A DNA stretch of 54,625 bases from Verrucomicrobiota bacterium. GTDB lineage: Bacteria > Verrucomicrobiota > Verrucomicrobiia > Limisphaerales > UBA9464. Shown in pieces: positions 2-22,873 of the stretch. The stretch covers positions 1 to 54,625 of the forward strand of contig JAYUSF010000108.1 of the NCBI GenBank assembly GCA_043755815.1. The letters are read 5' to 3'. A program made the position numbers and the translations under genes. The notes below the pieces were generated by a model. It was given only the letters and a program-made list of their open reading frames with translations. It was not told the DNA's origin and ran no database searches. Every line of letters starts with the position of its first letter. Within the stretch, counting starts at the first letter, position 1.

Positions 2-2695
2 TTGGGAAACCGGGAAAATCTACCTCAGCCTCGTCCCCAAAACCCCACTCACCAACTGATGCTCACCGAATTTACAGAAAGAGCATTGCGCGGCCAACCT
101 GGGAACGGATCTTTGGACCGTCCAAATAGTGTCGCGTTAGACGAAGCGGGCAACGTCTATATCGCCGACACCTTCAACAACGCGATCAAGAAATGGACGG
201 CGACCAGCAAAACCGTCACTGAGTTGGTCAACTCGGGATTAAATCAGCCCTATGGCGTGGCCGTGGACGGCGCGGGCAATGTCTATATCGCTGACACTGG
301 CAACAACCAGATCAAGAAATGGACGGCCGCCAACAAGTCCGTCTCCACGCTGGTCTCCTCAAAGTTGAACGGACCCTATGGCGTGGCGGTTGACGGCGCC
401 GGGAATGTCTATTTTTCTGACAACCTTAACAACGCGATCAAGAAATGGACAGCCGCGAGTAAGACCGTCACCACGCTGGTATCTTCGGGGTTGTTCAATC
501 CCGCCGGGGTGGCGGTTGACGGCGCGGGAAATGTCTATATCGCCGACAGCAACTCAAACGCGCTCAAGAAGTGGACGGCGGCCGGAAAGACCGTCTCTAC
601 TCTGATCTCAGGGATAAACTTCCCCCTGGGCGTGGCGTTGGACGGCGCGGGAAATGTCTATATCGCTGAAACCGGCAACAGCCAGATCAAGGAATTGGCG
701 CGGGCGTTTGTCGACCCGACGGCCATCATGGAAGGGCCGGATGCTGGCAGCGATGTCCTGGAGTCCGTGTTGCCCGACTCGCAAAAGCTGCTGCCTCCCT
801 TCGCCCCGACCAGCAGCGAATCGTGGCTGACCCTCACCGGCGTCAGCAATGGCGTCGTGAGTTTTGCCTTCACGGCCAACCCCGGCCCAGAGCGCGCGGC
901 TGAGATCACCCTACTGGGCAGATCAATTCCCATTACTCAGGCTGGGAAGTCCAAAGTCGCGCTAGGCACCAACAATGTCGCGGTAGGAGCCTCGGCTGGA
1001 AGCGGCAGCGTGGCACTTGCCCTCTCCTCGCCGGCCGCTCCATGGGAGGCCAGGGCAAACGATCGGTGGCTCCATTTGAGTGCGAACAATCAAAGCGGCG
1101 TGGGCAGCACCAACTTGGTCTTCACCTATGACGCCAACCTTGGGCCCCCTCGCGTGGGCACACTGACCATCTCGGGTCAGACGCTCAGCGTGTCTCAGGT
1201 GGGTAGCAATTCCCTTGGGACGGCCACGCTCGTGGAAGGCCCCGCCAAAGGGACGGACAGCGTGGTTCTCGCAATGTTCGGATCGGTTTCCACCTGGACG
1301 GCCACAGCGAATGACGCCTGGCTCCATCTGAACCCCGCCAATCAAAGCGGCAAGGGCAGCGCGAATGTGGTCTTCACCTTCGACGCCAACCCGGGACCAA
1401 CGCGGACGGGCACGCTCAGTGTGGCCGGTCTGACCCTTGCCGTTACCCAGGCCGGCTCTGCCTACGTCACTGCGAACCCCCTCAGGAGTCTGGTCTCTGG
1501 TCGGCTGAATTCCCCCCTTGGGGTAGCGGTGGACAGCTCGGGCAATGTGTTTATCGCCGACACTCACAACAGTGCGATTAAGAAGTGGACTGTGGCCAGT
1601 GGCAGGGTCACCACGTTGGTTTCCGCGGGGTTGAATGAGCCGAGCAGCGTAGCAGTGGATCAGGCGGGCGGCGTCTATATTGCTGACACCTTCAACAACG
1701 CGATCAAGAAATGGACGGCGGCCAACCAAACCGTCACCACGTTGGTCGACGGCCTAAACTATCCCTTTGGTGTGGCGGTGGACGGCGCGGGAAATGTCTA
1801 TTTTTTTGACTCGCTCGGCCGCGGAATCAAGAAGTGGACGGCGGTCAGCCAAGCCGTGACCACGCTGGTCTCCCCGGTGAGTGGCGTGGACAAGGGTATG
1901 GCGGTGGACCGCGCGGGAAATGTCTATTTCGTCGGGATTGGGATCCAGAAGTGGACGGCGGCCAGTAAGACCCTCACCACGCTGGTTGCCTCGGAGTTTA
2001 CGTTTCCCAGCGGCGTGGCGGTGGACGGCGCGGGCAACGTGTATATCGCCGAAACCGAGCGGCATGCGATCAAGAGGTGGACGGCGGCCAGTAAGAGTCT
2101 CACCACGCTGGTTGCCTCGGAGTTGACGTATCCCAGCGGCGTGGCGGTGGATGGCGCGGGCAACGTGTATATCGCCGACACCGGGAATCATGCGATCAAG
2201 GTATTACCGCGGGCGTTAATTGACCCGACGCCAATGGCGGTATGGGCGGAGGCCGGCAGCGACGTCCTGCCGTCCGTGTTGCCCGCATCGCAGAACTTGC
2301 CGTCACCATTCGAGCCGAGTAGCAGCCAGTCGTGGCTGAGCATCACCGGCACCGGCAATGGCGTTGTGAGTCTTGCCTTCGCGGCCAATGACACCCGCGT
2401 TCCGCGCACCGCCCAGATCTTCGTGCTCGGCAAGAGCATCACCCTAACACAGTCGGGCGCGGCGAAGCCGGTCTTGGGTCGATCGGTTTGGCTACCGGAC
2501 GGGGCCTTCCAACTCAACTTCACCGGCACCGCCGGACTGTCCTATTCCGTGCTGTCCAGCACGGATCTGGCAATGCCGTTGGGTGCCTGGACCGTGGCTG
2601 GGCCCGCGGCGAACACGACCGGTGGCCAGTTTCAATTCACAACGCCAGTCTTGCCGGGGGCGGCGGCCAGATTCTTCCTCCTCAACGCGCCGTAG
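2..2695 (+). CDS. NHL-repeat (beta-propeller) and BACON-domain surface protein; 5' end probably incomplete
   Basis: About 11 copies of a ~42-aa NHL repeat (PxGVAVDGAGNVYIADTxNxxIKKWT) in two blocks, separated and followed by BACON-like modules (WL...G...V.FT..AN.G..R.GTL.IxG....VTQ). C-terminal FQLNFTG...STDL...W...RFF domain typical of verrucomicrobial secreted proteins. No signal peptide at the ORF start, so the true start is uncertain. Confidence 0.85.
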   Translation: MGNRENLPQPRPQNPTHQLMLTEFTERALRGQPGNGSLDRPNSVALDEAGNVYIADTFNNAIKKWTATSKTVTELVNSGLNQPYGVAVDGAGNVYIADTGNNQIKKWTAANKSVSTLVSSKLNGPYGVAVDGAGNVYFSDNLNNAIKKWTAASKTVTTLVSSGLFNPAGVAVDGAGNVYIADSNSNALKKWTAAGKTVSTLISGINFPLGVALDGAGNVYIAETGNSQIKELARAFVDPTAIMEGPDAGSDVLESVLPDSQKLLPPFAPTSSESWLTLTGVSNGVVSFAFTANPGPERAAEITLLGRSIPITQAGKSKVALGTNNVAVGASAGSGSVALALSSPAAPWEARANDRWLHLSANNQSGVGSTNLVFTYDANLGPPRVGTLTISGQTLSVSQVGSNSLGTATLVEGPAKGTDSVVLAMFGSVSTWTATANDAWLHLNPANQSGKGSANVVFTFDANPGPTRTGTLSVAGLTLAVTQAGSAYVTANPLRSLVSGRLNSPLGVAVDSSGNVFIADTHNSAIKKWTVASGRVTTLVSAGLNEPSSVAVDQAGGVYIADTFNNAIKKWTAANQTVTTLVDGLNYPFGVAVDGAGNVYFFDSLGRGIKKWTAVSQAVTTLVSPVSGVDKGMAVDRAGNVYFVGIGIQKWTAASKTLTTLVASEFTFPSGVAVDGAGNVYIAETERHAIKRWTAASKSLTTLVASELTYPSGVAVDGAGNVYIADTGNHAIKVLPRALIDPTPMAVWAEAGSDVLPSVLPASQNLPSPFEPSSSQSWLSITGTGNGVVSLAFAANDTRVPRTAQIFVLGKSITLTQSGAAKPVLGRSVWLPDGAFQLNFTGTAGLSYSVLSSTDLAMPLGAWTVAGPAANTTGGQFQFTTPVLPGAAARFFLLNAP

Positions 2696-3136: not shown

Positions 3137-6100
3137 TCAGTCCACATAGAGGAACTCGTTCGCGCTGAGCAACGCCTGGCAAAGGTCCGTAAGCACCTGC
3201 CGTTCGGGCGTGGGCTTCGGTTCGGCCTTGGCCTTGTCGTCTTTCTTGGCCTTGTCGTCGGCCGGAGGCGGGGGAAGCGACGCGAGGTGGGCGAGTTGGC
3301 GTTGCACGAAGGCCTGCGCCTCGGCCTGTTCGGCGGCGGTGGGCGGACGCTGGAAGGCGAGCTGCCAGGCGCGGCGGACTTGCGCGGCGCGGTCGGGGCC
3401 GGCGTCGGTTTCCAGGCGGGCGGCGAAGCGGGCGGCCTGGTCGAGCAGGAACTGGCTGTTCATCAGCATCAGCGACTGCGTGGCCACGGTGCTGTGCTGG
3501 CGGCGCTCGCAGTTCACCTCCATCACGGGCGCGTCGAACGCGTGCAGCAGCGCCAGCGGCCGGCTGCGGCGCACCTGCACGTAAACCGAGCGGCGGAACT
3601 CCTCGCCGTTCAGCGAACCTTCCACGGGCATCTTGTTGTCGCCGGTCGTCTTGTCCTCGCCCACGACGATCTGCCCGTGGACATCGGGTCGCACGGGCAC
3701 GGGCGGGCCGAACTGTTTCCGATTCAGCGAACCGCTGGTGGCGAGCACCCCGTCGCGGATGACCTCGGCGTCGAGCCGTTGGACCGGCTTGCGCCAGTAA
3801 AGGCGGTTCTCCGGATCGCGCCGTTCCTGCTTCGGGTCGCGGCGCGAGGCTTGCCGGTAAGCCGTCGAAGTGAGGATGAGCTTGTGCAGGCGCTTGAGCT
3901 TCCAGCCGTGCTGCGTGAAGTCGCTGGCCAGCCAGTCGAGCAGTTCAGGATGCGTTGGCTTCTCGCCCATCGCGCCGAAGTCCGCCGGCGTGTTCACGAG
4001 GCCGCGGCCGAAGTGGTGGAGCCAGATGCGGTTCACCAGCACGCGGGCGACGAGCGCATTCGTGCCGCTGGTGAGCCACTGCGCGAAGGCCAGCCGCCGG
4101 CCGCTGGTGGCGAAGTCGGCGCGATTCGTCGGAAACTCGATGGGTTGTCCCGTCGCGCTGAGCACGCTGAGGCCGCCGGGCAGCACCGCGGCCTTGGGTT
4201 GGTGATAATCGCCGCGGTGGAAGACGTGGGTGACGGGCTGGTGATGGGCCGGTTCGGTCAGCACGCTGAGAAAATCCTCGGCCGGCTTCTTCGCACGGAT
4301 TTCGCCGATCTTGGCGTCCATCGCCTTCAGGTCATCGGCGGCCTTCGGGTTGTATTGGTAGAGGACGCCCGGGTTGATGTTCACGCTGGGGTTGTCGGCG
4401 AGCAGCTTCTTCTGCTCGGGTGTGCGCTTGTCGGCGGGCGTGTCGTAGGCGGCCCGCAGCGGTGCGCGCAGGGCCTCGTCGAACTTCTCGAGGTGCTTCG
4501 TCAGCGCGTCGGCAAGGTAGTCCTTCTGCTTGGCTTCCTTTTCGGCCGCGAGCTTCTGCGCCTCGGCTTCAATCGCGGCGGACTGCTTCCGGTCGTCGTC
4601 GGTGTAGAGCGAGACGAGGCGTTCGCCGGGCGTGCGCCACTGCCTGTAGTCGTAGGCGGGCTCGAACACGGCGCGCAGCCGGTAGTAATCGGCGTGCGGG
4701 ATCGGGTCGTAGCGGTGGTCGTGGCATTGCGCGCAGCCGACGCTCAGGCCAAGCAGGGAGGTGGAGACGATCTTCAGCGTGTCGGCCATGACCTGATTGC
4801 GAACGGCGTCCCGGTCGGTCAAGGCGTCCGTGGCCGACCCGTCCACGCCCATGCGAAGGTAGCCCGTGGCCACGAGGAGATCGCGGGACTCGGCGCTGGC
4901 GAGCGCGACGGAAGAAGCAGAGGCCTGCGTCGCTTGGGCGAGTTCATCGCCGGCGAGCTGTTCGGTGACGAAACGGTCGAACGGCTTGTCGTCGTTGAAG
5001 GCGCGGATGACGTAGTCGCGATACTTGTAGGCGTAGGCGCGCGGCGGATCGGCGTCGCTGTAGCCGTCGGAGTCGGCGTAACCCGCGACATCGAGCCAGT
5101 GCCGGCCCCAGCGCTCGCCGTAATGCTTCGACTCGAGCAGGCGGTCGATGAGTCGCTCGTAGGCGGAGGCGGAAGATTGAATCTGGAAGGCAGGAAAGCC
5201 GGAAGGGGAAGAGCTGTTTGAACGGTTTTCTTTCGTTCCTGTTTTCCTGCCTTCCAGATTCCTCTCCGCTTCGCATTCGCGCACGAACGACTCCACTTCC
5301 TCCGGCGTGGGCGGCAGGCCGGTGAGGTCCAGCGTCACGCGTCGGATCAGGGTCACGGGATCCGCGTCGGGTGAGAACTTCACCCCCGCTGGCTTCATTT
5401 CGCTGACTAGGAATGCATCCAGCGGCGTGCGCGCCCGATCGCGGCTTTTCGTCTTCGGCACCGCCGGCTCGCGGATCGGCTGGAACGACCAGAAGGAACG
5501 TTCCTCCTCGGTGATGCCGCTGGTGCCCTTCGGCAATTCAGTGGGTTCGGGTCGCGCGGTTTTCGCGCCGGTCGCGATCCATTGGCGGAGCAGGGCGATC
5601 TCGGCCGGCGTGGGCTTCTTGTCGCGCTTTGGCATCTTGCCGCTTTCGACCAGCTTCAGCAGTTCGCTTTGGTCGGGCTTGCCGGGCACGATGGCCGGGC
5701 CGTCGTCGCCGCCCGCGAGGAGCAAGCGCCGCAAGCGCACGTCGAGGCCGCCCTTGAGCTGCTCGCCCTCGCCGTGACAGTCGAAACAATGCGCCTTGAG
5801 GATCGGCCGGATGTCCTTTTCGAAGGTGGGCGCCGGAGCGGCGAGGGCGGAAGGTCCAAGAAGGAGTCCGAACACAACCAGAGCGGCGGCTTCCAACTTC
5901 CGCAACCGCCGACGTGAAGAGGCTCCAACTGGAGACGCTGAACCGGCCAACGATGAACCAAGGGCTGCGGGGCGGTGTGGTGCAACGACCGCTTCCCCCT
6001 CACCCCAACCCTCTCCCTCGGGGAGAGGGAGTTGCTGGCCGACGCGGAAAGACTCCGCACGCGCTTTGGACAAGGGCCACCTTGTTTTCGCCGGTGTGAC

Positions 6101-7069
6101 CACTGACTGAATCGAAGCACAGCGCGTTTGACAATCCACCGGCACCGTGGCGTTCCCCCTCTCCCCGAGGGAGAGGGCCGGGGTGAGGGGGAACCGGGCG
6201 TGGTTGAAAACCGCCGTTTGACCTGCAAACCAGCTCCGCACCAACCTCTCTGCGTGCCCCCCAAGTGTCTGACCCGCGTCGCACGCGCTCTGCGAAAGAA
6301 TGACACGTGGTCTGAACAGCTCATATGGGGCTGGCTGCGAGGACGACGGTTCGCAAGCTACAAGTTCCGACGCCAGCACCCGTTCGGGGATCATGTCCTG
6401 GATTTCTTCTGTCTCGAAGCATGGCTGAACCTTGAACTGGACGGTTCGGGTCACGGCTTCCCCGACCAGCGCGCCAAGGACGCCCTCCGCGATGCCGAAC
6501 TGGAGCGGAAAGGAATCAAGGTGCTGCGCTTCTGGAATGGTGATCTGCGCCGCAACGCCCGCTTCATTCAGGACATGATCTGGCAGGCATTGCAGGAGCG
6601 GGCTCCGCACCGCGGAACGGCCGGTAAGTCCTAAGCCCATGAAACTGCGGGAGGTTTCTTTCCCCTCACCCCAACCCTCTCCCTCGGGGAGAGGGAGTCG
6701 CCCGCTCACGGCAGACAACTCCGAAAGTAATTCTGACGAAGACCGCCCTGTGTCGCCCCCTACGATCGCGGACTGAATCGCAGCACTACGCGTTGGCCGA
6801 TCCGCTGACGCAGTGACATTCTCCCTCTCCCCAAGGGAGAGGGTCGGGGTGAGGGGGAACCGCGCACCAATGCAAGCCGCCGCGTGGTTCGTCAACGGAG
6901 CGCGGACGATCACGTCCGCGAGAATTGTTGAACGCTTCCGCGCGGTTCCGGCGAACTCGAGCGGCGACTTTCCAGTCGCCGAACCGAGGCGGCTGGAATG
7001 CCGCCCCTCCATCACGGTGTCCCCGCGGACGAGGCCGTCCGCGCTCCGCAAATGTCTCTCCGCCTTCAT
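3137..7069 (-). CDS. DUF1549/DUF1553 (PSD1) protein with N-terminal planctomycete cytochrome c domain; start either ATG 7069 (coupled to upstream gene) or TTG 5905 (signal peptide)
   Basis: FEKDIRPILKAHCFDCHG (CxxCH), WSFQP, LIRRVTLDLTGLPPT, YGERWGRHWLDVAGYADS, CAQCHDH, ARVLVNRIWLHHFGRGLV, QSLMLMN, ANEFLYVD. ATG at 7069 overlaps the TGA of the DUF1501 gene (ATGA) and is in frame; MRKLEAAALVVFGLLLGPSALA from TTG 5905 resembles a signal peptide. Confidence 0.9.
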   Translation of the reverse strand: MKAERHLRSADGLVRGDTVMEGRHSSRLGSATGKSPLEFAGTARKRSTILADVIVRAPLTNHAAACIGARFPLTPTLSLGERENVTASADRPTRSAAIQSAIVGGDTGRSSSELLSELSAVSGRLPLPEGEGWGEGKETSRSFMGLGLTGRSAVRSPLLQCLPDHVLNEAGVAAQITIPEAQHLDSFPLQFGIAEGVLGALVGEAVTRTVQFKVQPCFETEEIQDMIPERVLASELVACEPSSSQPAPYELFRPRVILSQSACDAGQTLGGHAERLVRSWFAGQTAVFNHARFPLTPALSLGERGNATVPVDCQTRCASIQSVVTPAKTRWPLSKARAESFRVGQQLPLPEGEGWGEGEAVVAPHRPAALGSSLAGSASPVGASSRRRLRKLEAAALVVFGLLLGPSALAAPAPTFEKDIRPILKAHCFDCHGEGEQLKGGLDVRLRRLLLAGGDDGPAIVPGKPDQSELLKLVESGKMPKRDKKPTPAEIALLRQWIATGAKTARPEPTELPKGTSGITEEERSFWSFQPIREPAVPKTKSRDRARTPLDAFLVSEMKPAGVKFSPDADPVTLIRRVTLDLTGLPPTPEEVESFVRECEAERNLEGRKTGTKENRSNSSSPSGFPAFQIQSSASAYERLIDRLLESKHYGERWGRHWLDVAGYADSDGYSDADPPRAYAYKYRDYVIRAFNDDKPFDRFVTEQLAGDELAQATQASASSVALASAESRDLLVATGYLRMGVDGSATDALTDRDAVRNQVMADTLKIVSTSLLGLSVGCAQCHDHRYDPIPHADYYRLRAVFEPAYDYRQWRTPGERLVSLYTDDDRKQSAAIEAEAQKLAAEKEAKQKDYLADALTKHLEKFDEALRAPLRAAYDTPADKRTPEQKKLLADNPSVNINPGVLYQYNPKAADDLKAMDAKIGEIRAKKPAEDFLSVLTEPAHHQPVTHVFHRGDYHQPKAAVLPGGLSVLSATGQPIEFPTNRADFATSGRRLAFAQWLTSGTNALVARVLVNRIWLHHFGRGLVNTPADFGAMGEKPTHPELLDWLASDFTQHGWKLKRLHKLILTSTAYRQASRRDPKQERRDPENRLYWRKPVQRLDAEVIRDGVLATSGSLNRKQFGPPVPVRPDVHGQIVVGEDKTTGDNKMPVEGSLNGEEFRRSVYVQVRRSRPLALLHAFDAPVMEVNCERRQHSTVATQSLMLMNSQFLLDQAARFAARLETDAGPDRAAQVRRAWQLAFQRPPTAAEQAEAQAFVQRQLAHLASLPPPPADDKAKKDDKAKAEPKPTPERQVLTDLCQALLSANEFLYVD
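5179..5261. repeat. In-frame palindromic element (GAATCTGGAAGGCAGGAAA arms) inside PSCyt gene 1
   Basis: Perfect 19-bp inverted repeat 5179-5197 / 5243-5261; translated as NLEGRKTGT...SGFPAFQI; absent from the paralog at 14144. Confidence 0.9.
5996..6196. repeat. Composite palindromic unit A: two inverted BoxC-like CCCTCACCCC..CCCTCTCCC...GGGAGAGGG hairpins plus spacer
   Basis: cccctcaccccaaccctctccctcggggagaggga (5996-6030) and inverted copy cccctctccccgagggagagggccggggtgagggg (6156-6190). Confidence 0.9.
6254..6634 (+). CDS. DUF559 / Vsr-like PD-(D/E)XK endonuclease-domain protein
   Basis: ARALRKNDTWSEQLIWGWLR..RF..YKFRRQHP.G..VLDFFC....L.LELDGSGH....DALRDAELE..GIKVLRFWN; likely GTG start at 6254, in frame with ORF 6128-6634. 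Confidence 0.9.
   Translation: MPPKCLTRVARALRKNDTWSEQLIWGWLRGRRFASYKFRRQHPFGDHVLDFFCLEAWLNLELDGSGHGFPDQRAKDALRDAELERKGIKVLRFWNGDLRRNARFIQDMIWQALQERAPHRGTAGKS
6662..6862. repeat. Composite palindromic unit B: direct repeat of unit A, offset 666 bp
   Basis: cccctcaccccaaccctctccctcggggagaggga at 6662 is identical to 5996; the right arm ends gggggaaccg at the same offset; spacers are colinear (gactgaatcg.agcac..cgcgtt.g.c.atcc). Confidence 0.9.
6897..7047. repeat. Nested REP-like pairs
   Basis: Outer pair ggagcgcggacgatcacgtccgcg (~6898-6921) / cgcggacgaggccgtccgcgctcc (~7024-7047); inner pair gcggcgactttccagtcgcc (~6961-6980) / ggcggctggaatgccgcccctcc (~6988-7010). Confidence 0.75.
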
Positions 7070-8541
7070 GCGTCGCGCAGGATTTCCTTCACCACGCGGC
7101 AGGGTTTGCCGTCGGTGAGATGCTGGCTCTGGCCGTTCTGGAAGTAGGCCAGCTCCGCGTGATCCAGGCCGAACAGGTGCAGCAGCGTGGCGTGGTAGTC
7201 GTTCGGGCTGACGGGATTCACGACCGCCTTGTGGCCGAACTCGTCCGTCTCGCCGTAGGTCATGCCGCCCTTGAAGCCGCCGCCCGCCACCCAGCTCGTG
7301 AAGCCCTGGCCGTTGTGGTCGCGCCCCGCCTTCTCCGCGGCGCCGTGATTCTCCGTCACCGGCAGGCGGCCGATTTCGCCGCCCCAATGCACGATCGTCG
7401 AGTCGAGCAGCCCGCGCGCCTTGAGGTCCTTCACCAGCGCGGTGGACGGCTGATCGGTCTTCCGGCAGCACGTCGCGAGGTTGCTTTTGATGCCCTCATG
7501 ATTGTCCCAGATCTGGCCGTTCACGAAGAGCTGCACGAACCGCACGCCGCGTTCCACCAACCGGCGCGCGATCAGGCAGCGCGCGCCGTATTCGCGCGTC
7601 TCGTCGCGGTCGAGGCCGTAGAGCTTCTTCGTGGCCTCGCTTTCGCCGGAGATGTCCAGCGCCTCCTTGGCGGCGGTCTGCATGCGCGCGGCGAGTTCGT
7701 AGCTGGCAATGCGCGCTTCCAGATCCGCTTCGCCCGGGTGCCGCGCGAGGTGCTCCTGATTCAGGCGGGCAAGGAAGGCCAGGTTCTGTTCCTGCAACGT
7801 GCCTTTCAGGTGCGGCGGCGGATCAAGGTTCAGGATACGCGGCTCCGCCGAGCGGACGACCGTGCCCTGGAACAGCGGCGGCATGAAGCCGTTCGACCAA
7901 TTCCGCACGCCGTCCACCGGATGCCCGCCCGGATCGGTGAGCACCACGTAGGCGGGCAGGCTCTGGCTTTCGGAGCCGAGTCCGTAGGTCAGCCATGAGC
8001 CGAGTGCGGGGCGCCCCGGCTGCGCGCGGCCGGTGTTCATGAACCAGATGGACGGCTCGTGCCCGTTGATGTCCGTGTGCATCGAGCGGATCACCGTCAC
8101 GTCATCCACGATGCTGGCGAAGTGCGGCAGCAGCTCCGAAACGGGCGTGCCGCACTGGCCGTGCTGGCGGAATTCCCACGGGCTGCCGAACAGCTTCTTG
8201 CTCGCCCGATCCACGAAGCTGAACGTGATCTCGCCCGCGTAATCCTGCCCGCTGCGTTTGGTGAGCTCCGGCTTCGGGTCGAAGAGGTCGATGTGACTCG
8301 GCCCGCCGTGCATGAAGAGCGAGATCATCGCCCGCGCCCGTGGCGTCCGCGACGGCTGCTTCTGCTTCAGGTCAAAGGACTGCGGGTTGCGCGGCACGTT
8401 GGCCGGCGTGGCGAGCAGGCGTTCCTCCCGCAACATCCACGCGAGGGCCACGCTGCCGACGCCCATCGCATTGCGCGCAAGGAAGCGGCGGCGGGAGAGG
8501 ATTCCCGGCTCAGCGAACGGCAGCGGCGGAAACGGATTCAT
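7066..8541 (-). CDS. DUF1501 family protein (sulfatase-like fold, Tat-like signal)
   Basis: SRRRFL signal, RAMISLFMHGGPSHIDLFDPKP, GSWLTYGLGSESQSLPAYVVL, ARRLVERGVRFVQL, WGGEIGRLP, GRDHN, GETDEFG. Confidence 0.93.
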   Translation of the reverse strand: MNPFPPLPFAEPGILSRRRFLARNAMGVGSVALAWMLREERLLATPANVPRNPQSFDLKQKQPSRTPRARAMISLFMHGGPSHIDLFDPKPELTKRSGQDYAGEITFSFVDRASKKLFGSPWEFRQHGQCGTPVSELLPHFASIVDDVTVIRSMHTDINGHEPSIWFMNTGRAQPGRPALGSWLTYGLGSESQSLPAYVVLTDPGGHPVDGVRNWSNGFMPPLFQGTVVRSAEPRILNLDPPPHLKGTLQEQNLAFLARLNQEHLARHPGEADLEARIASYELAARMQTAAKEALDISGESEATKKLYGLDRDETREYGARCLIARRLVERGVRFVQLFVNGQIWDNHEGIKSNLATCCRKTDQPSTALVKDLKARGLLDSTIVHWGGEIGRLPVTENHGAAEKAGRDHNGQGFTSWVAGGGFKGGMTYGETDEFGHKAVVNPVSPNDYHATLLHLFGLDHAELAYFQNGQSQHLTDGKPCRVVKEILRDA

Positions 8542-13901: not shown

Positions 13902-14143
13902 GGGGAGGGGGGCGGTTCGGCGGCACTCAAACACGCGCGCGGTCGTCACGCCAGCGCGCGTTGCGGATTCGGCGTTTCGTGAAACTGCCGCGCCGTGTCC
14001 GGCTTCCTTTGCCCCACGGCCGCCCATTCTCGGCCTGCGCTCAGCGGCGCTCAATTCCGGCGCGGGCCAAAGACGTGCTTGCCTGCGAAAAACCGGCAGT
14101 GTGACGCTCCGTGACAATGCCCGCCGGAGAAACCGCACCCTTC

Positions 14144-17100
14144 ATGAGATTTCGGAGCGCGACCTTCCTCGCCATCCTGCTGGGTGTCGCGGGAGACCTG
14201 AGTTTGCGGGCGGCGGAACCGTCCGGACCTGACTTCAACCGCGAGGTCCGCCCCATCCTCTCGCAGAACTGTTTCAAATGCCACGGGCCGGATGACGCGG
14301 CGCGGAAGGCCAAACTGCGCCTCGACGTGCGCACCGACGCCGTCGGCCCCGCGAAATCGGGGGCCGTCGCGATTGTGCCCGGCCGCCCTGCAGAGAGTGA
14401 GTTGGTAAAGCGGATCTTCACCGCCGACGCGGATGAGGTGATGCCGCCGCCGAACACGAAGCACGAGCTTTCGGCGGCGCAGAAGGAAACCCTGCGCCAG
14501 TGGATCGCCGCGGGCGCGGAATACAAACCGCATTGGGCCTTCGTGCCGCCGCGAGCGTCCGAGCCGCCGGCGGTGGCCGATGCCGCCTGGCCCCGCAATG
14601 GCATCGACCACTTCGTCCGCGCCCGGCTGGCGCGGGAAGGTCTCGAACCTTCGCCTGCCGCCGACCCCTACACGCTGGTGCGGCGGGTTTACCTCGACCT
14701 GATCGGACTGCCGCCGACGCCCGAAGAGGCGGACGCGTTCGTCCATGACACGGAGGGCAAGGCCTACGAGAAGCTGGTGGATGAACTCCTGGCGTCCCCG
14801 CGCTACGGCGAGCGCTGGGGGCGGCGCTGGATGGACCTGGCCCGTTACGCCGACACGAACGGCTACGAGAAGGACCGCCAGCGCAGCATCTGGCCGTGGC
14901 GCGACTGGGTGATCCGTTCGCTCAATGCCGACCTGCCGTTCGATCAGTTCACGGTGGAGCAGCTCGCCGGCGACCTGCTGCCGAACGCAACGGTGGACCA
15001 GCGGGTGGCCACCGGATTCCACCGCAACACCATGCTGAATGAGGAAGGCGGAATCGATCCGCTGGAATTCCGCTTTCACGCGATGACCGACCGCGTGGGC
15101 ACGACGGGCACGACCTGGCTGGGACTCACGGTCGGCTGTGCCCAGTGCCACACGCACAAATACGATCCGATCACGCACCGGGAGTATTACCAGCTGATGG
15201 CGTTCCTCAACAACGCCGACGAACCCGATCTGGACCTGCCGGCGCCCGATGCGGCGGAGAAACGCCGCGCCGATCTCGCCAAGGCCGACCGGCTCCTGAC
15301 GGAGCTGCCCGGCAAGTTTCCGGTGGCGACGCCTGGCCGTTGGGAATCGCCGAAACCCGTCAGCGTCGAGTCCGCGAGCGGCGAGAAGCCGAAACTGTTG
15401 GACGACGGCTCGGCGCTTTTCGCCGGCCCGAGTCCCGACAAGGACAACTACACCTTCGTGCTGGAAACGGAGCTTGAGGGCGTGGACCGGCTGAGGCTCG
15501 AGGCGTTCACGGACGAGGCGCTGCCCAGCAAGGGCCCGGGACGGGTGAAGCACGGCAACTTCGTGCTGAGCGAAATCGTCGTGACGGCCGCGCCGCGGAA
15601 CGCCCCGGAGCAGACGCAGCCGGTTAAGATCGCCTCCGCGGTCGCGGACGTGGAGCAGTCGGGTCACCCGGTGCGCAACGCCTTTGACGGCAAGTCCGAC
15701 ACCGGCTGGGCCGTGGACGTCGGCCCGTCGGCGCTCAATGCAACGCACACGGCCACCTTCAGCTTCGAGCAGCCGGTTCACTTTGCCGGCGGGACCCGTT
15801 TCGTCATCCGGCTCGAGCAGCAGCAGGTTCCGCAACATCTCCTTGGCCGGCCGCGGCTCAGCCTGGGTGCGCCCGCGCCGGAGAGCCGCCCCCTGGAAGA
15901 GCGGCGGCGTGAACTCGTGGAACGGCGTTTCGCCGAATGGTTGGAAAAGGAACGCGCCCGGGCGGTTCGCTGGACGCCGCTGCGCCCGAAATCGGCCACG
16001 TCGAACTCGCCGTTGCTGACGGTCCAGCCGGATGACTCCGTGTTCGCGAGCGGGGACGTGACGAAGAGCGACACCTACGAGCTGGCGTTTCAGCCGCAGT
16101 CTCGCGGGATCACCGCGGTGCGCCTGGAAGCCCTGCCGGACGACCGCCTGCCGCGACACGGCCCCGGCATGGCCTATTACGAGGGACCCAAGGGCGACTT
16201 CTTCCTTGGCGAGTTTCAGCTCACGGCGGACGGCCAACCCGTGAAGGTCGTGAATCCGACCCAGAGCTTCGGGAAAAACAACTTTGGCGCCGATGCGACC
16301 GCGGCCTTCGCGGTGGACGGCGATCCGCAGACCGGCTGGTCCACTGCGGGGCGCGAAGGCCAGCGGCACGAAGCGGTCTTCTCCTTTGCCGAGCCGCTGA
16401 CGGGCGCCGGTGAACTGCGGCTGAAGATGCTCTTTGGCCGCCACTACGCCTGTTCCCTGGGCCGGTTCCGCATCTCCGTGACCACGCGTCCGGGCGGGGC
16501 CGAGGCTCGGGCGCTCTCGGAAGCGGCGGCGGCCCTGGTCCTGCTTCCCGAGGCGGAGCTGAACGCGGCCCAGCGGCAGATATTGCGCGAAGAGTTCCTG
16601 CTCACCACCCCGGAACTCGCCGAGGCGCGGAAGGAGATCTTCGCGTTGCGCGGACAGCCAAGCCCGCTGACCACCCTGGTGCTGCGTGAACGGCCGCCGG
16701 AAAATCCCCGGCCGACGTTCCTCCATCGCCGCGGCGAGTATCTGCAGCCGGCGGAGCGCGTGGACCCCGGGGTGATCTCGGCGGTGGCGCCGTTTCCGGA
16801 CGACCTGCCCCGCAACCGGCTCGGCCTGGCGCGGTGGCTGGTCTCATCCAACAACCCGCTCACCGCCCGCGTGACGGTGAACCGCCAGTGGCAGGCATTC
16901 TTTGCCCGCGGTCTGGTGCGGACCACGGAGGACTTTGGTTTCCAAGGCGAGGCACCGTCGCATCCGGAACTGCTCGACTGGCTGGCGGTGGAGTTCATGC
17001 GCGGCGGCTGGTCAATGAAGCGGCTGCACAAGCTCATCGTCATGAGCGCCACCTACCGGCAGTCGTCCCGGGTGACTCCGGAGATGCTGGCGCGGGACTC

Positions 17101-17731
17101 CGAGAACCGCCTGCTGGCCCGTGGCCCGCAAGTCCGGCTCGAGGCGGAGATCATCCGTGATGCCTCACTGCGGGCCAGCGGCCTGCTCTCCGCGAAGATG
17201 GGCGGCGCCGGCGTCTATCCGCCGCAGCCGGCGGGCGTCACGGAAGTCGCCTACGGCAGTCCCGCCTGGCCGACCAGCGCGGGCGAAGACCGCCACCGGC
17301 GCAGCGTCTACACCTTCACGAAACGCACCGCCCCGTTCGCGATGTTCAACACGTTCGACGCGCCGACGGGCGAATCCTGTCTGGCGCGGCGCGACGTTTC
17401 GAACACGCCGCTGCAGGCGCTGACCCTCCTGAACGACGTGTTCTTCGTCGAGGTGTCGCAGGCCATGGGCCGTGCGTGGGCCGCCGAAACGGGTTCCGTG
17501 GAAGCACGGATCCGTTCCGCGTTCCGCCGCTGCCTGACCCGTCCGCCCACCGCCGATGAAGTCGCCGCGCTGGCGAAGTTTTTCGAGGCGCAGCGGCAGC
17601 GATTCGCCAGCAGGGACCTCGACCCGGAGCCCGTCGCGGGCGAAGGACCGGGCGACGTGGTGGAACGCGCGGCCTGGACGACACTGGCCCGCGCCCTGTT
17701 GAACTTGGACGAGACGATCACCAAAGGCTAA
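14144..17731 (+). CDS. DUF1549/DUF1553 protein with planctomycete cytochrome c and two internal beta-sandwich (discoidin-like) repeats
   Basis: Signal peptide, [49 protein letters not shown], two LRLEA.(T/P)D..LP..GPG...G.F.L.E units, [13 protein letters not shown]. Confidence 0.93.
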   Translation: [1195 protein letters not shown]

Positions 17732-19177: not shown

Positions 19178-19258
19178 AGTCATGGCCCGGCCCGAAGATT
19201 CCAACCTGAGGCTTCCGGGCGGAGGCGGAATGTGGGAACGTCCCCGCCAAACACCGGA

Positions 19259-22200
19259 ATGAGAAACTGGCTCGTCAGCGCCGTCTTCTTGGTTGGGTCG
19301 TGGCTGCGCGGTGCCGCCGCGGAACCCAAGGCGCCGCACTGGGCCTTCCAGCCCGTCCGGATTCCCGCGCCGCCGAAGGTGACCAACGTCGCGTGGGCCC
19401 GGACCACCCTGGACCGTTTCATCCTCGAACGGCTCGAGGCGAAGGGGCAGCAACCCGCGCCCGCGGCCGATCCGCGCACGCTCATCCGGCGGGCGACCTT
19501 CGACCTCACGGGGCTGCCGCCGACCGCGGAAGAGGTGGATGCGTTCGAGCGGGAAGTCGCCGGAGAGAAGAATCAGGAAGGCAGGAAAACAGGAACTTCT
19601 CCTGCGGGGGCGGATTCGCCCGCTCCTGCTTCCGGCTTTCCTGCCTTCCAGATTTTCCCCTCGGCCTATTCCCGCCTCGTTGACCGTCTGCTCGCCTCGC
19701 CGGCCTACGGCGAGCATTGGGGCCGGCATTGGCTCGACGTCGTGCGTTACGCCGACACGGCGGGCGAGACCGCCGACTATCCGGTGCCCGTCGCGTGGCG
19801 TTACCGCAACTACGTCATCGACGCCTTCAACGCCGACAAACCCTACGACGAGTTCCTCCGCGAACAGATCGCGGGCGACATCCTGGCGAAGGGCGGCCCG
19901 CGCGAACGCTACGCCGAACGCGTGACGGCCACGGGTTTCCTCGCGGTGTCGCGCCGGTTCGGCTTCGACTCGGAGAATTACCATCACCTCACGATCCAGG
20001 ACACGATCGACACGGTCGGCCAGAGCGTGCTCGGACTGACGCTGGGCTGCGCGCGCTGCCACGCCCACAAGTTCGACCCGGTCTCGCTGCCCGATTACTA
20101 CGCGCTCTACGGCATCTTCGACAGCACCCGCTACGCGTTCCCCGGCTCCGAGCAGAAGCAGCGGAGCCGCGCGCTCGTGCCGCTGGTGCCGCCCGGGGAA
20201 TCGCAGCCGAAGTGGCGGGAGTTTGAGCACCGGGTTGCCGGACTCATGCAGCGGATTGAACGGGGCAAACTGTCGGCGCCCTCCGCCGTGCTGCGGTCGC
20301 TCGACGAACTCGACGGCGACCTCGAAATGCAGGCGCCGGCCGCCGGCGGCAGCAAGGGCGTGCTCGTGCCCCCGTGGGTTTACGACGGCCCGATCGCCGT
20401 GACGGCAAACGCGCAGAGCCCGTTCAAGAACCTGTATCCGCTGGGCAAGGTCGGCGCGAGCGTCGCCGCCGGCACCAACGGCTACCGGCTGACGCAGGCG
20501 GTGCCCGCGGGGCCAAGGCGTTCCCCGGGACTCCTGCACGCGAGCCTGGATTTCCGCATCGGCGCGGCCGACTCCGCCACCCACGCACCCCACCGGTTCT
20601 GGCTCGGCGCGGCCGACGGCACGCCGGTCGCCGAAGTGCTGTTGACGGGTGAAGGGGTCACCGTGCGCGGGCGCGATTCGGTCCAACCCCACCGCACGCT
20701 GCGGCCCAACGAATGGTATCAGCTCCAGCTCACGCTGGATCTCGCCGTCGGCACGTTCACCGGCACGGTCGGCCGCCCCGGGGAGGTCACCAAAATAGGA
20801 CCGCGCCCGCTGCGGGGTCCCTGGACCAACGGCGTCGCCGCTTTTGGTTTGGATTCCCTGGCGTCGGCCGGCGGCTCCCGCGCGGCCATCGCCTTTGACA
20901 ACCTCGCCGTGCAGGCCGCGCCCATTCCGCCGGTGTCCACCACGTCACCGGTGGTGCTCGCCGCCGCCGGGACTGATGCCGCGGCCCTCGGCGCCCGGCT
21001 CCGGGAACTCGCCGGCCTCGACGGTGATTTCGAAAACCAGGACGACCACACGCCACCCGCCTCGCCGTGGGGTCCCGGACCGAACAGCGTGGCCCGAATC
21101 AGTGCCGCGGCGCAGAGCCCGTTCCGCAATCTTTACCCGGCCGGCCGGTTGGGCCTCCGCCTGCCCAACCGCGCCGCCTACGACGGCTTCGACCAGCAGC
21201 TCACCAACCGCTGGCAGGCGGACAAGACGCCGCGCCTGTTCGCCGGCTTCGACTTCCGCTGCGCCGACGTGACGGCGGGCGGCGACGGTTCGTGGCGCTT
21301 CTACGCGGGCCACGGCGCCGGACCGGCCCCGGCGGTGGAGCTGTTCTTCAACGGCCGCGACTTCTTCCGCCGCAGCGGCGAGGCGCGCGACGCCGTGTGT
21401 GCGCTGAAGGTGGGCGAGTGGTATCAGGTGCAGCTTGCGCTCGACCTCAAGGCGCGGAGCTACACGGGCGTGCTCGCGTCGACGAACGGGCGGACGGAAT
21501 TCTCCGGCCAGTTCGCCGGCAACTGGGACGGCAGCCTCGATTTCACCTTCATCGACAGCCACGGACACCTGGGCGGGGTGCGGCCCGCCCTGGACGTCGA
21601 CAACTTCGTCTTCCGCGAGACCCCGCTGCCCCCGTTGGACGCCCGCCCCGGCGAGGTCGCCGCGGGCGAACGGGTGGCGCGGCGGAACCAGTTGTCCGAA
21701 CTGCGGGGACAGCTCGCCGAGGCGAAGGCGGATGCCGACCGGGCGCGCCGGGAACTCGAGTCGCTGCTCGCCGAGGGACCGTTCCCGCTCACCTACGGCG
21801 TCACCGAAGGCACCCCGCGCGACGCCCGCATCCAGATCCGGGGCGAGCCGGACCGGCCGGGCGACGTGGTTCCGCGCGGCTTCCTCCATGTGCTGGGCGG
21901 TGGCTCATTGCCCAAAGGCGCGACGGGCAGCGGTCGGCTCGAACTCGCCGAATGGCTCACCAGTCCCACGAACCCGCTGACGGCCCGGGTGATGGTGAAC
22001 CGCATCTGGCAGTATCACTTCGGCCAGGGCCTCGTGAAGACGCCGAACGACTTCGGCACCCGCGGCCTACGCCCGACGCATCCCGAACTGCTGGATCACC
22101 TGGCAACGGAGTTCATCCGCGGCGGCTGGTCCATCAAGGCGCTGCACCGGCTGATCATGAACAGCGCGGTTTACCAGCAGAGGAGCCAGTATTCAGTGAT

Positions 22201-22873
22201 CAGTGATCAGTCGTCAGTGGGCAGTGCGCCCGATGACTGTCCGATCATTCCTGGAACCACCCGCGTTGCCGGACTGAATACTGACCTACTGAACACTGAT
22301 TACTTTTCCCCGTTTTCGCGCCGCCGCCTTGGGGCCGAGGAAACGCGTGACGCCCTCCTTCGGGTCAGCGGCGCGCTGGACCCGACGCCCGGCGAGGGCC
22401 ATCCGTTCCCGGCGCCGACCGGTTGGGGCTACACGCAGCACGGTCCGTTCAGCGCGGTCTACGACCACAGCCGGCGCAGCGTTTACCTGATGACCCAGCG
22501 CCTCAAACGCCACCCGTTCCTCGCGCTGTTCGATGGCGCCGATCCGAATGCCAGCACCGCCGAACGTCGCACGACCACCGTGCCCACGCAGGCGCTGTTC
22601 TTCCTGAACGATCCCTTTGTCCATGCCAGCGCGGAGAAGCTCGCCGCCCGCGTGCGGGCCACCGCGACCGCGGAACCGGAGCGGGTGAAAGCGGCCTACC
22701 GGCTGGCCGTCGGGCGCAATCCGGGTCCGGCAGAAGTGACCGAAGCCGCGGAGTTTCTCGCCGCCTATCGCGCGGAACTGACCGCCGCCGGGAAGGACGC
22801 CGGCGAATCCTCCGTCTGGGCCGCCTTTGCCCGCGTGCTCTTCGGCAGCAATGAATTCCTCACCGTGGATTGA
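19259..22873 (+). CDS. DUF1549/DUF1553 protein without the N-terminal cytochrome domain, with a duplicated central beta-sandwich domain
   Basis: Signal peptide then HWAFQP, YGEHWGRHWLDVVRYADT, CARCHAH, two AQSPF(K/R)NLYP.G...EWYQ.QL.LDL units, GSNEFLTVD end. Confidence 0.92.
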   Translation: MRNWLVSAVFLVGSWLRGAAAEPKAPHWAFQPVRIPAPPKVTNVAWARTTLDRFILERLEAKGQQPAPAADPRTLIRRATFDLTGLPPTAEEVDAFEREVAGEKNQEGRKTGTSPAGADSPAPASGFPAFQIFPSAYSRLVDRLLASPAYGEHWGRHWLDVVRYADTAGETADYPVPVAWRYRNYVIDAFNADKPYDEFLREQIAGDILAKGGPRERYAERVTATGFLAVSRRFGFDSENYHHLTIQDTIDTVGQSVLGLTLGCARCHAHKFDPVSLPDYYALYGIFDSTRYAFPGSEQKQRSRALVPLVPPGESQPKWREFEHRVAGLMQRIERGKLSAPSAVLRSLDELDGDLEMQAPAAGGSKGVLVPPWVYDGPIAVTANAQSPFKNLYPLGKVGASVAAGTNGYRLTQAVPAGPRRSPGLLHASLDFRIGAADSATHAPHRFWLGAADGTPVAEVLLTGEGVTVRGRDSVQPHRTLRPNEWYQLQLTLDLAVGTFTGTVGRPGEVTKIGPRPLRGPWTNGVAAFGLDSLASAGGSRAAIAFDNLAVQAAPIPPVSTTSPVVLAAAGTDAAALGARLRELAGLDGDFENQDDHTPPASPWGPGPNSVARISAAAQSPFRNLYPAGRLGLRLPNRAAYDGFDQQLTNRWQADKTPRLFAGFDFRCADVTAGGDGSWRFYAGHGAGPAPAVELFFNGRDFFRRSGEARDAVCALKVGEWYQVQLALDLKARSYTGVLASTNGRTEFSGQFAGNWDGSLDFTFIDSHGHLGGVRPALDVDNFVFRETPLPPLDARPGEVAAGERVARRNQLSELRGQLAEAKADADRARRELESLLAEGPFPLTYGVTEGTPRDARIQIRGEPDRPGDVVPRGFLHVLGGGSLPKGATGSGRLELAEWLTSPTNPLTARVMVNRIWQYHFGQGLVKTPNDFGTRGLRPTHPELLDHLATEFIRGGWSIKALHRLIMNSAVYQQRSQYSVISDQSSVGSAPDDCPIIPGTTRVAGLNTDLLNTDYFSPFSRRRLGAEETRDALLRVSGALDPTPGEGHPFPAPTGWGYTQHGPFSAVYDHSRRSVYLMTQRLKRHPFLALFDGADPNASTAERRTTTVPTQALFFLNDPFVHASAEKLAARVRATATAEPERVKAAYRLAVGRNPGPAEVTEAAEFLAAYRAELTAAGKDAGESSVWAAFARVLFGSNEFLTVD
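19570..19654. repeat. In-frame palindromic element, same family and same insertion site as 5179-5261
   Basis: gaatcaggaaggcaggaaaacaggaac ... cttccggctttcctgccttccagatt; translated NQEGRKTGT...SGFPAFQI. Confidence 0.9.
22187..22304. repeat. In-frame element with inverted heptamer arrays (CAGTGAT)n ... (ACTGAnn)n
   Basis: cagtatt cagtgat cagtgat cagtcgt cagt (22187-22218) and actgaat actgacct actgaac actgatt act (22273-22304); translated QYSVISDQSSV...LNTDLLNTDY. Confidence 0.85.

Follow-up and report, generated by a model that had tools for sequence, protein, structure and literature searches.

A hairpin cassette occupies the same loop of several paralogous PSCyt genes in the genome of a Verrucomicrobiota bacterium. 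It was found in the window, meaning the whole stretch of DNA that was analyzed, which is 54,625 nucleotides long (assembly GCA_043755815.1, contig JAYUSF010000108.1) and corresponds to contig C108 of the source draft, G000 (5.74 Mb, 388 contigs, 64.8% G+C, 83% complete). Two genes in the window, g1 and g2, carry the cassette within their PSCyt2 (DUF1549) domains. The explanation that we favor, with a probability of roughly 0.6, is that the cassette was copied between DUF1549 paralogs by ectopic gene conversion, with its arms kept and its interiors drifting. The cassettes belong to a genome-wide hairpin repeat family and are read through in frame. They fill several paralogs that are not sisters, share flanking codons, have arms conserved above the neutral level, and form mosaics, while the corresponding outgroup sites are empty. 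From these observations we infer the mechanism (gene conversion), the direction of transfer and the reason for arm retention. Below, G and C numbers denote genomes and contigs, and a site is called filled or empty according to whether it holds the cassette.

On the coding strands, the elements at 5179-5261 (- strand) and 19570-19654 (+ strand) have a common left arm, GAATC[T/A]GGAAGGCAGGAAAACAGGAAC, identical at 26/27 nt, and a common right arm, CTTCCGGCTTTCCTGCCTTCCAGATT, identical at 26/26 nt. The left and right arms are inverted complements of each other. They enclose spacers of 29 nt in g1 and 32 nt in g2, between which no similarity was detectable (global alignment z -1.2). Both elements lie in frame in the PSCyt2/DUF1549 domain, between ...GLPPT.EEV..F and AY.RL.DRLL. 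The original prediction of one hairpin element at the same codon position of two PSCyt paralogs, with unrelated spacers and an empty site in a third paralog (listed at 14144), was thus borne out. The features concerned are the following.

3137..5929, - strand: gene g1, encoding a PSCyt1-PSCyt2(DUF1549)-PSD1(DUF1553) protein (from translation, Pfam and a frame check; start approximate)
5159..5284, - strand: g1 cassette, 126 nt, reading VRECEAER-NLEGRKTGT-KENRSNSSSP-SGFPAFQI-QSSASAY
5235..5261, - strand: left arm of g1, read in coding sense, 27 nt; the G002 ortholog has the identical arm, and the G003 ortholog and g2 each match it at 26/27
5206..5234, - strand: g1 spacer, 29 nt, 13/29 identical to the G002 and G003 orthologs
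5180..5205, - strand: right arm of g1, read in coding sense, 26 nt, with no difference from that of g2 (26/26)
14738..14767, + strand: empty site of the third paralog (gene 14111-17731), reading F-V-H-D-T-E-G-K-A-Y, FVHDTEGKAYEKL
19232..22873, + strand: gene g2, encoding a PSCyt2(DUF1549)-PSD1(DUF1553) protein without a PSCyt1 domain
19547..19669, + strand: g2 cassette, 123 nt, reading EREVAGEK-NQEGRKTGT-SPAGADSPAPA-SGFPAFQI-FPSAY
19570..19596, + strand: g2 left arm, 27 nt
19597..19628, + strand: g2 spacer, 32 nt, self-complementary
19629..19654, + strand: g2 right arm, 26 nt

A 13-mer arm core, allowing at most one mismatch, occurs four times in the window, and these are exactly the four arms. 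Shuffled windows averaged 0.16 occurrences, and 0 of 100 shuffles reached four. The tract common to g1 and g2 extends past the arms, by about seven codons before them and 2-5 codons after them. As sense RNA, the g1 cassette was predicted to fold into a hairpin of -53.1 kcal/mol, and the g2 cassette into one of -60.6 kcal/mol. The elements by themselves fold at -55.2 kcal/mol (g1, 87 nt, + strand) and -51.4 kcal/mol (g2), with extra pairing contributed by the spacers (z -2.8 and -3.3). The inner fold of the g2 spacer has -19.0 kcal/mol (z -3.3 compared to shuffles). A scan of the g2 site for a terminator and a promoter found neither. Rfam returned no match at the gathering score, only chance microRNA-precursor-like matches far below it.

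Translation of the insert adds about 27-35 low-complexity residues (N-L-E-G-R-K-x-G ... S-G-F-P-A-F-Q-I). Pfam matched PSCyt2 in g1 in two stretches with the insert between them, and PSD1 was also matched; the PSCyt2 match of the filled paralog on C133 is likewise divided in two. In an AlphaFold2 model, which was poor (mean predicted local distance difference test (pLDDT) score of 55.7, 16-row alignment), the insert is coil with pLDDT below 50 between helices 64-80 and 110-120. A search of 5.8 billion proteins with the 43-residue cassette peptide gave two matches among eight candidates, both of them PSCyt1/PSCyt2/PSD1 proteins. The open reading frame (ORF) listed as 3137-7471 for g1 continues upstream of the gene through repeats. 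Two copies of another repeat, ARFPLTP(T/A)LSLGER.N...LPLPEGEGWGEG, lie there at about 5930-7470 (- strand) and inflate the ORF.

The wider family was scanned for with a paired-arm pattern in G000 and with a 25-mer arm consensus, allowing at most three mismatches, across genomes; reversed patterns served as controls. The paired-arm pattern detected 31 palindromic copies in G000. The arm consensus matched 68 times in G000 and 24-52 times in four other genomes of the genus, and the reversed-pattern controls gave 0. The family is present in all five other genus genomes, G005 being shown by the flank-arm junction pattern described below. A second genus of the same taxonomic family has 19-56 arm matches per genome, and the other eight genera searched have 0-1. 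Arms are about 26-40 nt long and are built of 8-nt units of the CAGGAAnn type, with ends (T)GAATCTGG...CCAGATTC(A), i.e. (T)GAATYTGG. The centre is variable, from about 10 to 150 nt, and mostly dissimilar between copies; the G000 copies fold at -18.9 to -113.6 kcal/mol.

Family copies in the genus are mainly intergenic. Among the pattern copies most lack a convincing spanning frame, which was found only in g1, g2, a DUF1549 gene on C133 and a sodium:solute symporter (SSF) gene on C32. The coding copies seen in G000 belong to two gene families, the DUF1549 paralogs and this one SSF symporter, with genes called from spanning ORFs and G+C content at third codon positions (GC3). Including a degraded copy on C23, four of the five in-frame copies seen in G000 are at the DUF1549 site, so the copies are not randomly scattered. 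The symporter copy (L091:1999-2081, i.e. G000:C32:6998-7080) uses a different reading frame (GIWKAGKQEDAKTGG...) and is at the same place in G001, G002 and G005; Pfam matches SSF in three stretches. Three intergenic copies were checked. One, on C212, is collinear in the genus, with the orthologous site filled in all four other species aligned, a conserved right arm, and left and inner parts that vary. The two others are located at synteny breaks. In four genomes of the second genus (G013, G020, G043 and G047) the arm family is abundant, yet the best-matching g2 loci are all empty; the best match to the C133 gene in G013 is empty at the site as well, and the G013 g1 locus could not be parsed.

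A consistent direct target-site duplication was not found flanking 25 pairs or 110 arms, by eye and by position count. The 83%-complete draft has 15 matches to Y1_Tnp genes, none of which adjoins an arm; the nearest two are weak and lie some 1.5-2 kb off, on C255 and C334. A second repeat unit, GAACAGCGAAGGCGCGAAGGCGCGAAG, is often found next to the hairpin elements or inside them (G000 C14, C19, C88, C146, C190, C211, C221, C246 and C315), and, at one intergenic site with orthologs, G003 and G004 have it instead of the left arm. The window itself begins within a multi-copy element (1-2700, ORF 2..2695, + strand), of which about 90 bases (GGATTGGGAAACCGGGAAAATCTACC...) recur at 25 contig ends. 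This is probably an insertion sequence (IS) that breaks the assembly, and its ends are unlike the family arms.

There are 43 DUF1549 loci in G000, and four have an insert at this site: g1, g2, C133:17284-18081 and C23:17906-18694, the last with decayed arms. A maximum-likelihood tree of the domain was built without the insert columns. The four filled paralogs are not one clade, 0 of 200 bootstrap trees unite them, and at least three changes are required by the starred branches. The sister pairs are g2 with C23 (support 100/96) and C133 with an empty paralog (98/97), and g1 lies elsewhere. Reading the site across paralogs and orthologs, a check proposed with the original prediction, also revealed further filled lineages in related genomes. 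A lineage ending ...YGERWARH ("WARH") is filled in G003, in G004 and in G014, which belongs to another genus, and has a remnant in G001. In another, G003:C2 and G002:C164 are filled and the right arm has been lost from G004:C308. The lineage that matches G000 C141 is degenerate in G004 and G001, and G000 retains only FEREHHQVGSVAY. Both FEREHHQVGSVAY in G000 C141 and FVRECAAEPAGSETTGSPADAAY in G001 are remnants of deleted cassettes. A pattern for the junction of flank and arm occurs at 20 places in the six genus genomes and at 0 in controls. Four DUF1549 paralogs on G000 C340 (3800, 8368, 14048 and 22182) are all empty, and two of them are the nearest G000 relatives of genes filled in G003.

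The timing of the gains was read from orthologs. Identity is 77-90% between orthologs compared to 47-64% between paralogs, which indicates that the paralogs split before the genera did. All same-genus orthologs that could be read are filled: 6/6 in the g2 lineage, 4/4 in the g1 lineage, where the G005 contig stops within the element, and 4/4 in the C133 lineage. At loci from other genera, the site is empty in 24/25, 23/24 and 21/25 cases, respectively. Over these three lineages, 68 of the 74 outgroup loci have the canonical empty site F-x-x-D-x-x-P-x-A-Y, none is filled, and 6 could not be parsed. Since the paralogs split before the genera and the outgroup sites are empty, the cassette must have entered each lineage separately, on the stem of the genus. 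Gains also seem to have continued within the genus. In the lineage filled in G003:C2, the nearest G000 gene (C340:3800) is empty, with 48/59 residues identical after the site.

The codons around the cassette bear on how it arrived. In the native loop, F and A-Y are separated by just seven residues. Filled sites instead read F-x-R-E-C-x-E-E-x, then N-L-E-G-R-K..., ...S-G-F-P-A-F-Q-I, 2-5 residues and A-Y, with 4-6 native codons replaced, a number that differs by lineage. The R-E-C codons, CGC GAA TGY, are common to the filled paralogs (CGCGAATGYGCGGAGGAG flank) and are absent upstream of the arms from all 110 arm flanks in G000. The purine-rich GCGGAGG part of the flank resembles outer family units. 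Because the shared R-E-C-x-E-E replaces native codons and is absent from intergenic copies, the cassette appears to have been copied between paralogs rather than transposed as a bare element. A transposed element would have left the native codons intact and would not import identical foreign codons on every occasion, which makes transposition unlikely and speaks against the repeated site-specific insertion that had been offered as one reading of the two elements. Ectopic gene conversion, on the other hand, would account at once for the identity of site, frame and orientation and for the flank held in common. In 6 of the first 9 outgroup orthologs of the WARH lineage, F-E-R-D is the native sequence, which is suggestive of this lineage as a candidate first host.

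Outside the cassette, the filled paralogs are clearly diverged, as had been claimed. Third-position identity in same-residue codons, taken over 56 flanking codons, is 0.44-0.67 among the filled paralogs compared to 0.57-0.71 elsewhere in the domain. The flanking synonymous sites are therefore saturated and the flanks are not as similar as the arms. Their identity being no higher than in the rest of the domain, there was no recent conversion of the flanks. Between orthologs, the arms are identical at 42-52 of 53 positions (79-98%), compared to 0.49-0.80 at the 4-fold sites of the flanking gene. Three arm pairs exceed the neutral level (52/53 vs 0.80, 51/53 vs 0.67 and 50/53 vs 0.62; binomial P 1e-4 to 6e-8), and the fourth is not significant (43/53 vs 0.71, P 0.066). 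The spacers are at or below the neutral level, with 21-36 of 41 positions identical in C133 and 13/29 between the g1 spacers of G000 and G002 (P 3e-5, 4-fold sites 0.77-0.80). These results agree with the predicted cassette of conserved arms and an interior that turns over. The same arms are also kept in the non-coding copies of the family, suggesting that the nucleic acid, and not the peptide, is the target of constraint or homogenization. Each of the 14 ortholog cassettes that were folded gave a hairpin, at -39.6 to -79.6 kcal/mol, including the G001 ortholog of g1, in which the arm sequence has changed. The arms are most decayed where the family is sparse or was not found, in G001 (24 arm matches) and G014 (0).

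Within G000, the cassettes are mosaics. At 52/53 positions the g2 arms agree with those of g1, compared to 47/53 at most with their own orthologs. The flank and spacer of g2 are also outliers compared to five orthologs (left flank 11-12 of 23; spacer 32 vs 26 nt). The g1 spacer is nearest to the C133-lineage spacers and not to its own orthologs (z 5.3, 4.1 and 3.5; 0 of 500 shuffles reach the score). g1 and C23 share TGCGAAGCGGAG (C-E-A-E), where the g1 orthologs read C-A-E-E. Together, these sequence patterns suggest that short tracts have been converted repeatedly between the cassettes of a single genome. The idea that the arms are conserved while the loop is exchanged therefore stands in part, with exchange among a handful of paralog copies and not out of a spacer library. 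In a blastn-short search of G000 with three of its spacers, the 40 matches listed were all for the g1 spacer and at chance level, of 16 nt at most; it was gapped alignment that tied the g1 spacer to those of C133.

We propose the following course of events. One family copy would have become fixed in frame in the short variable loop of PSCyt2/DUF1549, between the LPPT.EEV..F helix and the AY.RL.DRLL helix. The cassette, i.e. the hairpin and the R-E-C-x-E-E codons before it, would then have been copied to the same position in other paralogs by ectopic, non-allelic gene conversion, for which the conserved blocks on either side of the loop may have acted as homology. Transfers would have started before the sampled species of the genus split and continued afterwards. 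Later short tracts between cassettes, perhaps also with other family copies, could keep the arms alike and create the mosaics, and the interior would be free to change by substitutions and by insertions and deletions in multiples of three.

Several points weigh against this proposal. The homology blocks beside the loop are short (about 25-35 nt) and imperfect, so conversion should be rare, yet seven or so lineages are filled, which suggests some bias or selection. Outside the cassette, the three-way site test at C133 demonstrated no conversion tract. Around the insert, 32 sites were g1-like and 2 were like the sister gene (C234), compared to 288 and 461 elsewhere, and a tract was considered and rejected here: the C133 outgroup orthologs natively carry the same conserved residues, so the g1-like signal is conservation. 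The WARH lineage is only a candidate donor: its best G000 match is empty, while a match from another genus, in G014, is filled. Lineages outside G000 were assigned by the flanking sequence after the site and not by the tree, and apart from G003 (50 contigs) the assemblies are fragmented, with 240-690 contigs. A bolder version of the proposal is that the cassette is a self-propagating in-frame module. It would home to the same PSCyt2 loop by biased conversion (e.g. through breaks at, or repair from, the palindrome), and its arms would be held by a nucleic-acid function shared with the intergenic copies, such as one binding factor or a common mRNA structure linking a subset of the roughly 43 PSCyt paralogs. 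We offer this version as a speculative one, with a low chance of being correct.

Other explanations have to be weighed against copying between paralogs. The family's mobilizing enzyme might recognize a DUF1549 sequence and insert separately into each paralog. This would agree with the fact that the family has further copies lying in frame or fixed at orthologous places, e.g. in the SSF symporter on C32, and with the unrelated spacers of g1 and g2; moreover, because purine-rich GCGGAGG-like units lie beside some intergenic arms, part of the shared flank could be the element's own. Separate insertion is nevertheless improbable in our view, given that the CGC GAA TGY codons of the filled paralogs are missing from the 110 arm flanks, that the 4-6 native codons replaced vary in number by lineage, that target-site duplications are not visible, that the spacers of g1 and C133 are homologous and that 0/15 Y1-transposase matches adjoin an arm in the assembly. 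Shared flank, frame and orientation would also follow from a single ancient insertion in the ancestor of the paralogs, inherited by the filled genes and lost elsewhere, and the remnants FEREHHQVGSVAY (G000 C141) and FVRECAAEPAGSETTGSPADAAY (G001) show that cassettes have been deleted. This possibility is largely refuted by the outgroup loci of the three filled lineages (68/74 canonically empty, 0 filled, 6 unparsable), by the split of the paralogs before the genera (77-90% ortholog vs 47-64% paralog identity) and by the tree with its minimum of three changes, and we consider it close to negligible.

Another possible explanation is that the element is a functional nucleic-acid module, a putative mRNA or DNA hairpin bound by a trans factor, for example to pause, process or co-regulate a subset of PSCyt genes, and that it was spread and kept by selection, by whatever mechanism it is copied. 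The arms are conserved above neutral, in contrast to the spacer that lies in their peptide loop, and their sequence is conserved in non-coding copies too; hairpins persist in 14/14 ortholog cassettes even where one has an altered arm sequence, and arm decay is greatest where the family is sparse or was not found (G001, 24 arm matches; G014, 0). However, conversion among about 50 copies, by making them evolve in concert, can preserve the likeness of the arms even if these have no function; cassettes have decayed or been deleted in some lineages, and neither an Rfam match at the gathering score nor a terminator-like site was seen. We therefore regard such a module as a minority possibility. Finally, the arms could be recombination sites of an intragenic inverton or loop-exchange switch, with the spacer flipped or swapped to recode the loop. 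The 26-27-nt inverted repeats do bracket a short intragenic segment, as in the intragenic invertons described in a preprint (bioRxiv 10.1101/2023.03.11.532203), and reading the g2 element flipped (window 19571-19654, - strand) leaves the frame open, NLEGRKAGSRSGRIRPRRRSSCFPAFLI. A stop codon interrupts the flipped g1 element, 0 of 19 ortholog spacer pairs fit better as the reverse complement than directly, and the spacers are inherited along species lines in g2 and C133. An intragenic diversification device, which had been another suggestion for these elements, is thus very unlikely. Parts of the stretch occur in 20 public runs, and contigs (Logan) of four were compared at 85% likeness; contigs cannot show minority orientations. 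One contig is identical to the window. A second, belonging to a related strain, shows 24 differences over 489 nt, and the length of its element is unchanged. In one short contig the arms are joined with the spacer skipped, but only 26 nt lie on the shorter side and it may derive from any family copy. Most of the other pieces are paralogs from other organisms.

In-frame palindromic repeats have so far been known as an oddity found in Rickettsia and a few further groups; in the case described here, no fewer than seven members of a large paralog family have been colonized at one loop. The genus could serve as a natural system for studying by what route short selfish or structural DNA passes from paralog to paralog when no transposase step is involved, to what extent ectopic conversion occurs among the dozens of PSCyt genes of Verrucomicrobiota and Planctomycetes, and whether the arms are kept by function or by conversion alone. 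The cassette also marks a loop of PSCyt2, an uncharacterized domain, that tolerates 30-45 extra residues.

The closest known likeness is to the Rickettsia palindromic elements (RPEs). As far as the cited text describes them, these are multi-copy, lie in frame in coding genes, are translated as an extra peptide and are thought to be tolerated by the host protein (PMC10969869). Both are multi-copy palindromic families with in-frame copies read through as extra peptide. Homology is not expected, given the 65% G+C of the genome here and the different phylum of RPEs, and the sequences are probably unrelated. Unlike RPEs, most copies here are intergenic, and the coding copies cluster at a single site in one family of paralogs, with shared flank codons, which argues for copying between paralogs and not for many independent insertions into unrelated genes. 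REPINs, which are inverted REP doublets mobilized by RAYT (Y1) transposases, likewise consist of two inverted arms around a spacer and fold as a hairpin; according to the cited source they number in the tens per genome and persist by vertical descent throughout a genus (PMC3337134). In contrast to REPINs, to which the family is probably not homologous either, no RAYT-like gene stands next to the arms in this assembly, the members of the family do not have a conserved spacer, and the arms are arrays of purine-rich octamers instead of the short palindromes with a GTAG or CGTC tag outlined in a further source (PMC3733652).

[quoted passage not shown] They differ in that no target-site duplication was seen here and no parent IS with the same ends was identified in a search limited to Y1_Tnp genes; the interior here varies greatly in length, from about 10 to 150 nt. 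Intragenic invertons resemble the cassettes in the inverted repeats that bracket a short segment within coding sequence, as portrayed in the preprint named above. The ortholog spacers and the contigs gave no evidence of inversion, and flipping the g1 element would truncate the gene. Among open-access PMC and bioRxiv texts, we found no description of this repeat family or of a cassette spread to the same loop. Compared to all of these systems, what seems to be new is that one in-frame hairpin cassette spread to the same loop of many paralogs and then underwent concerted evolution.

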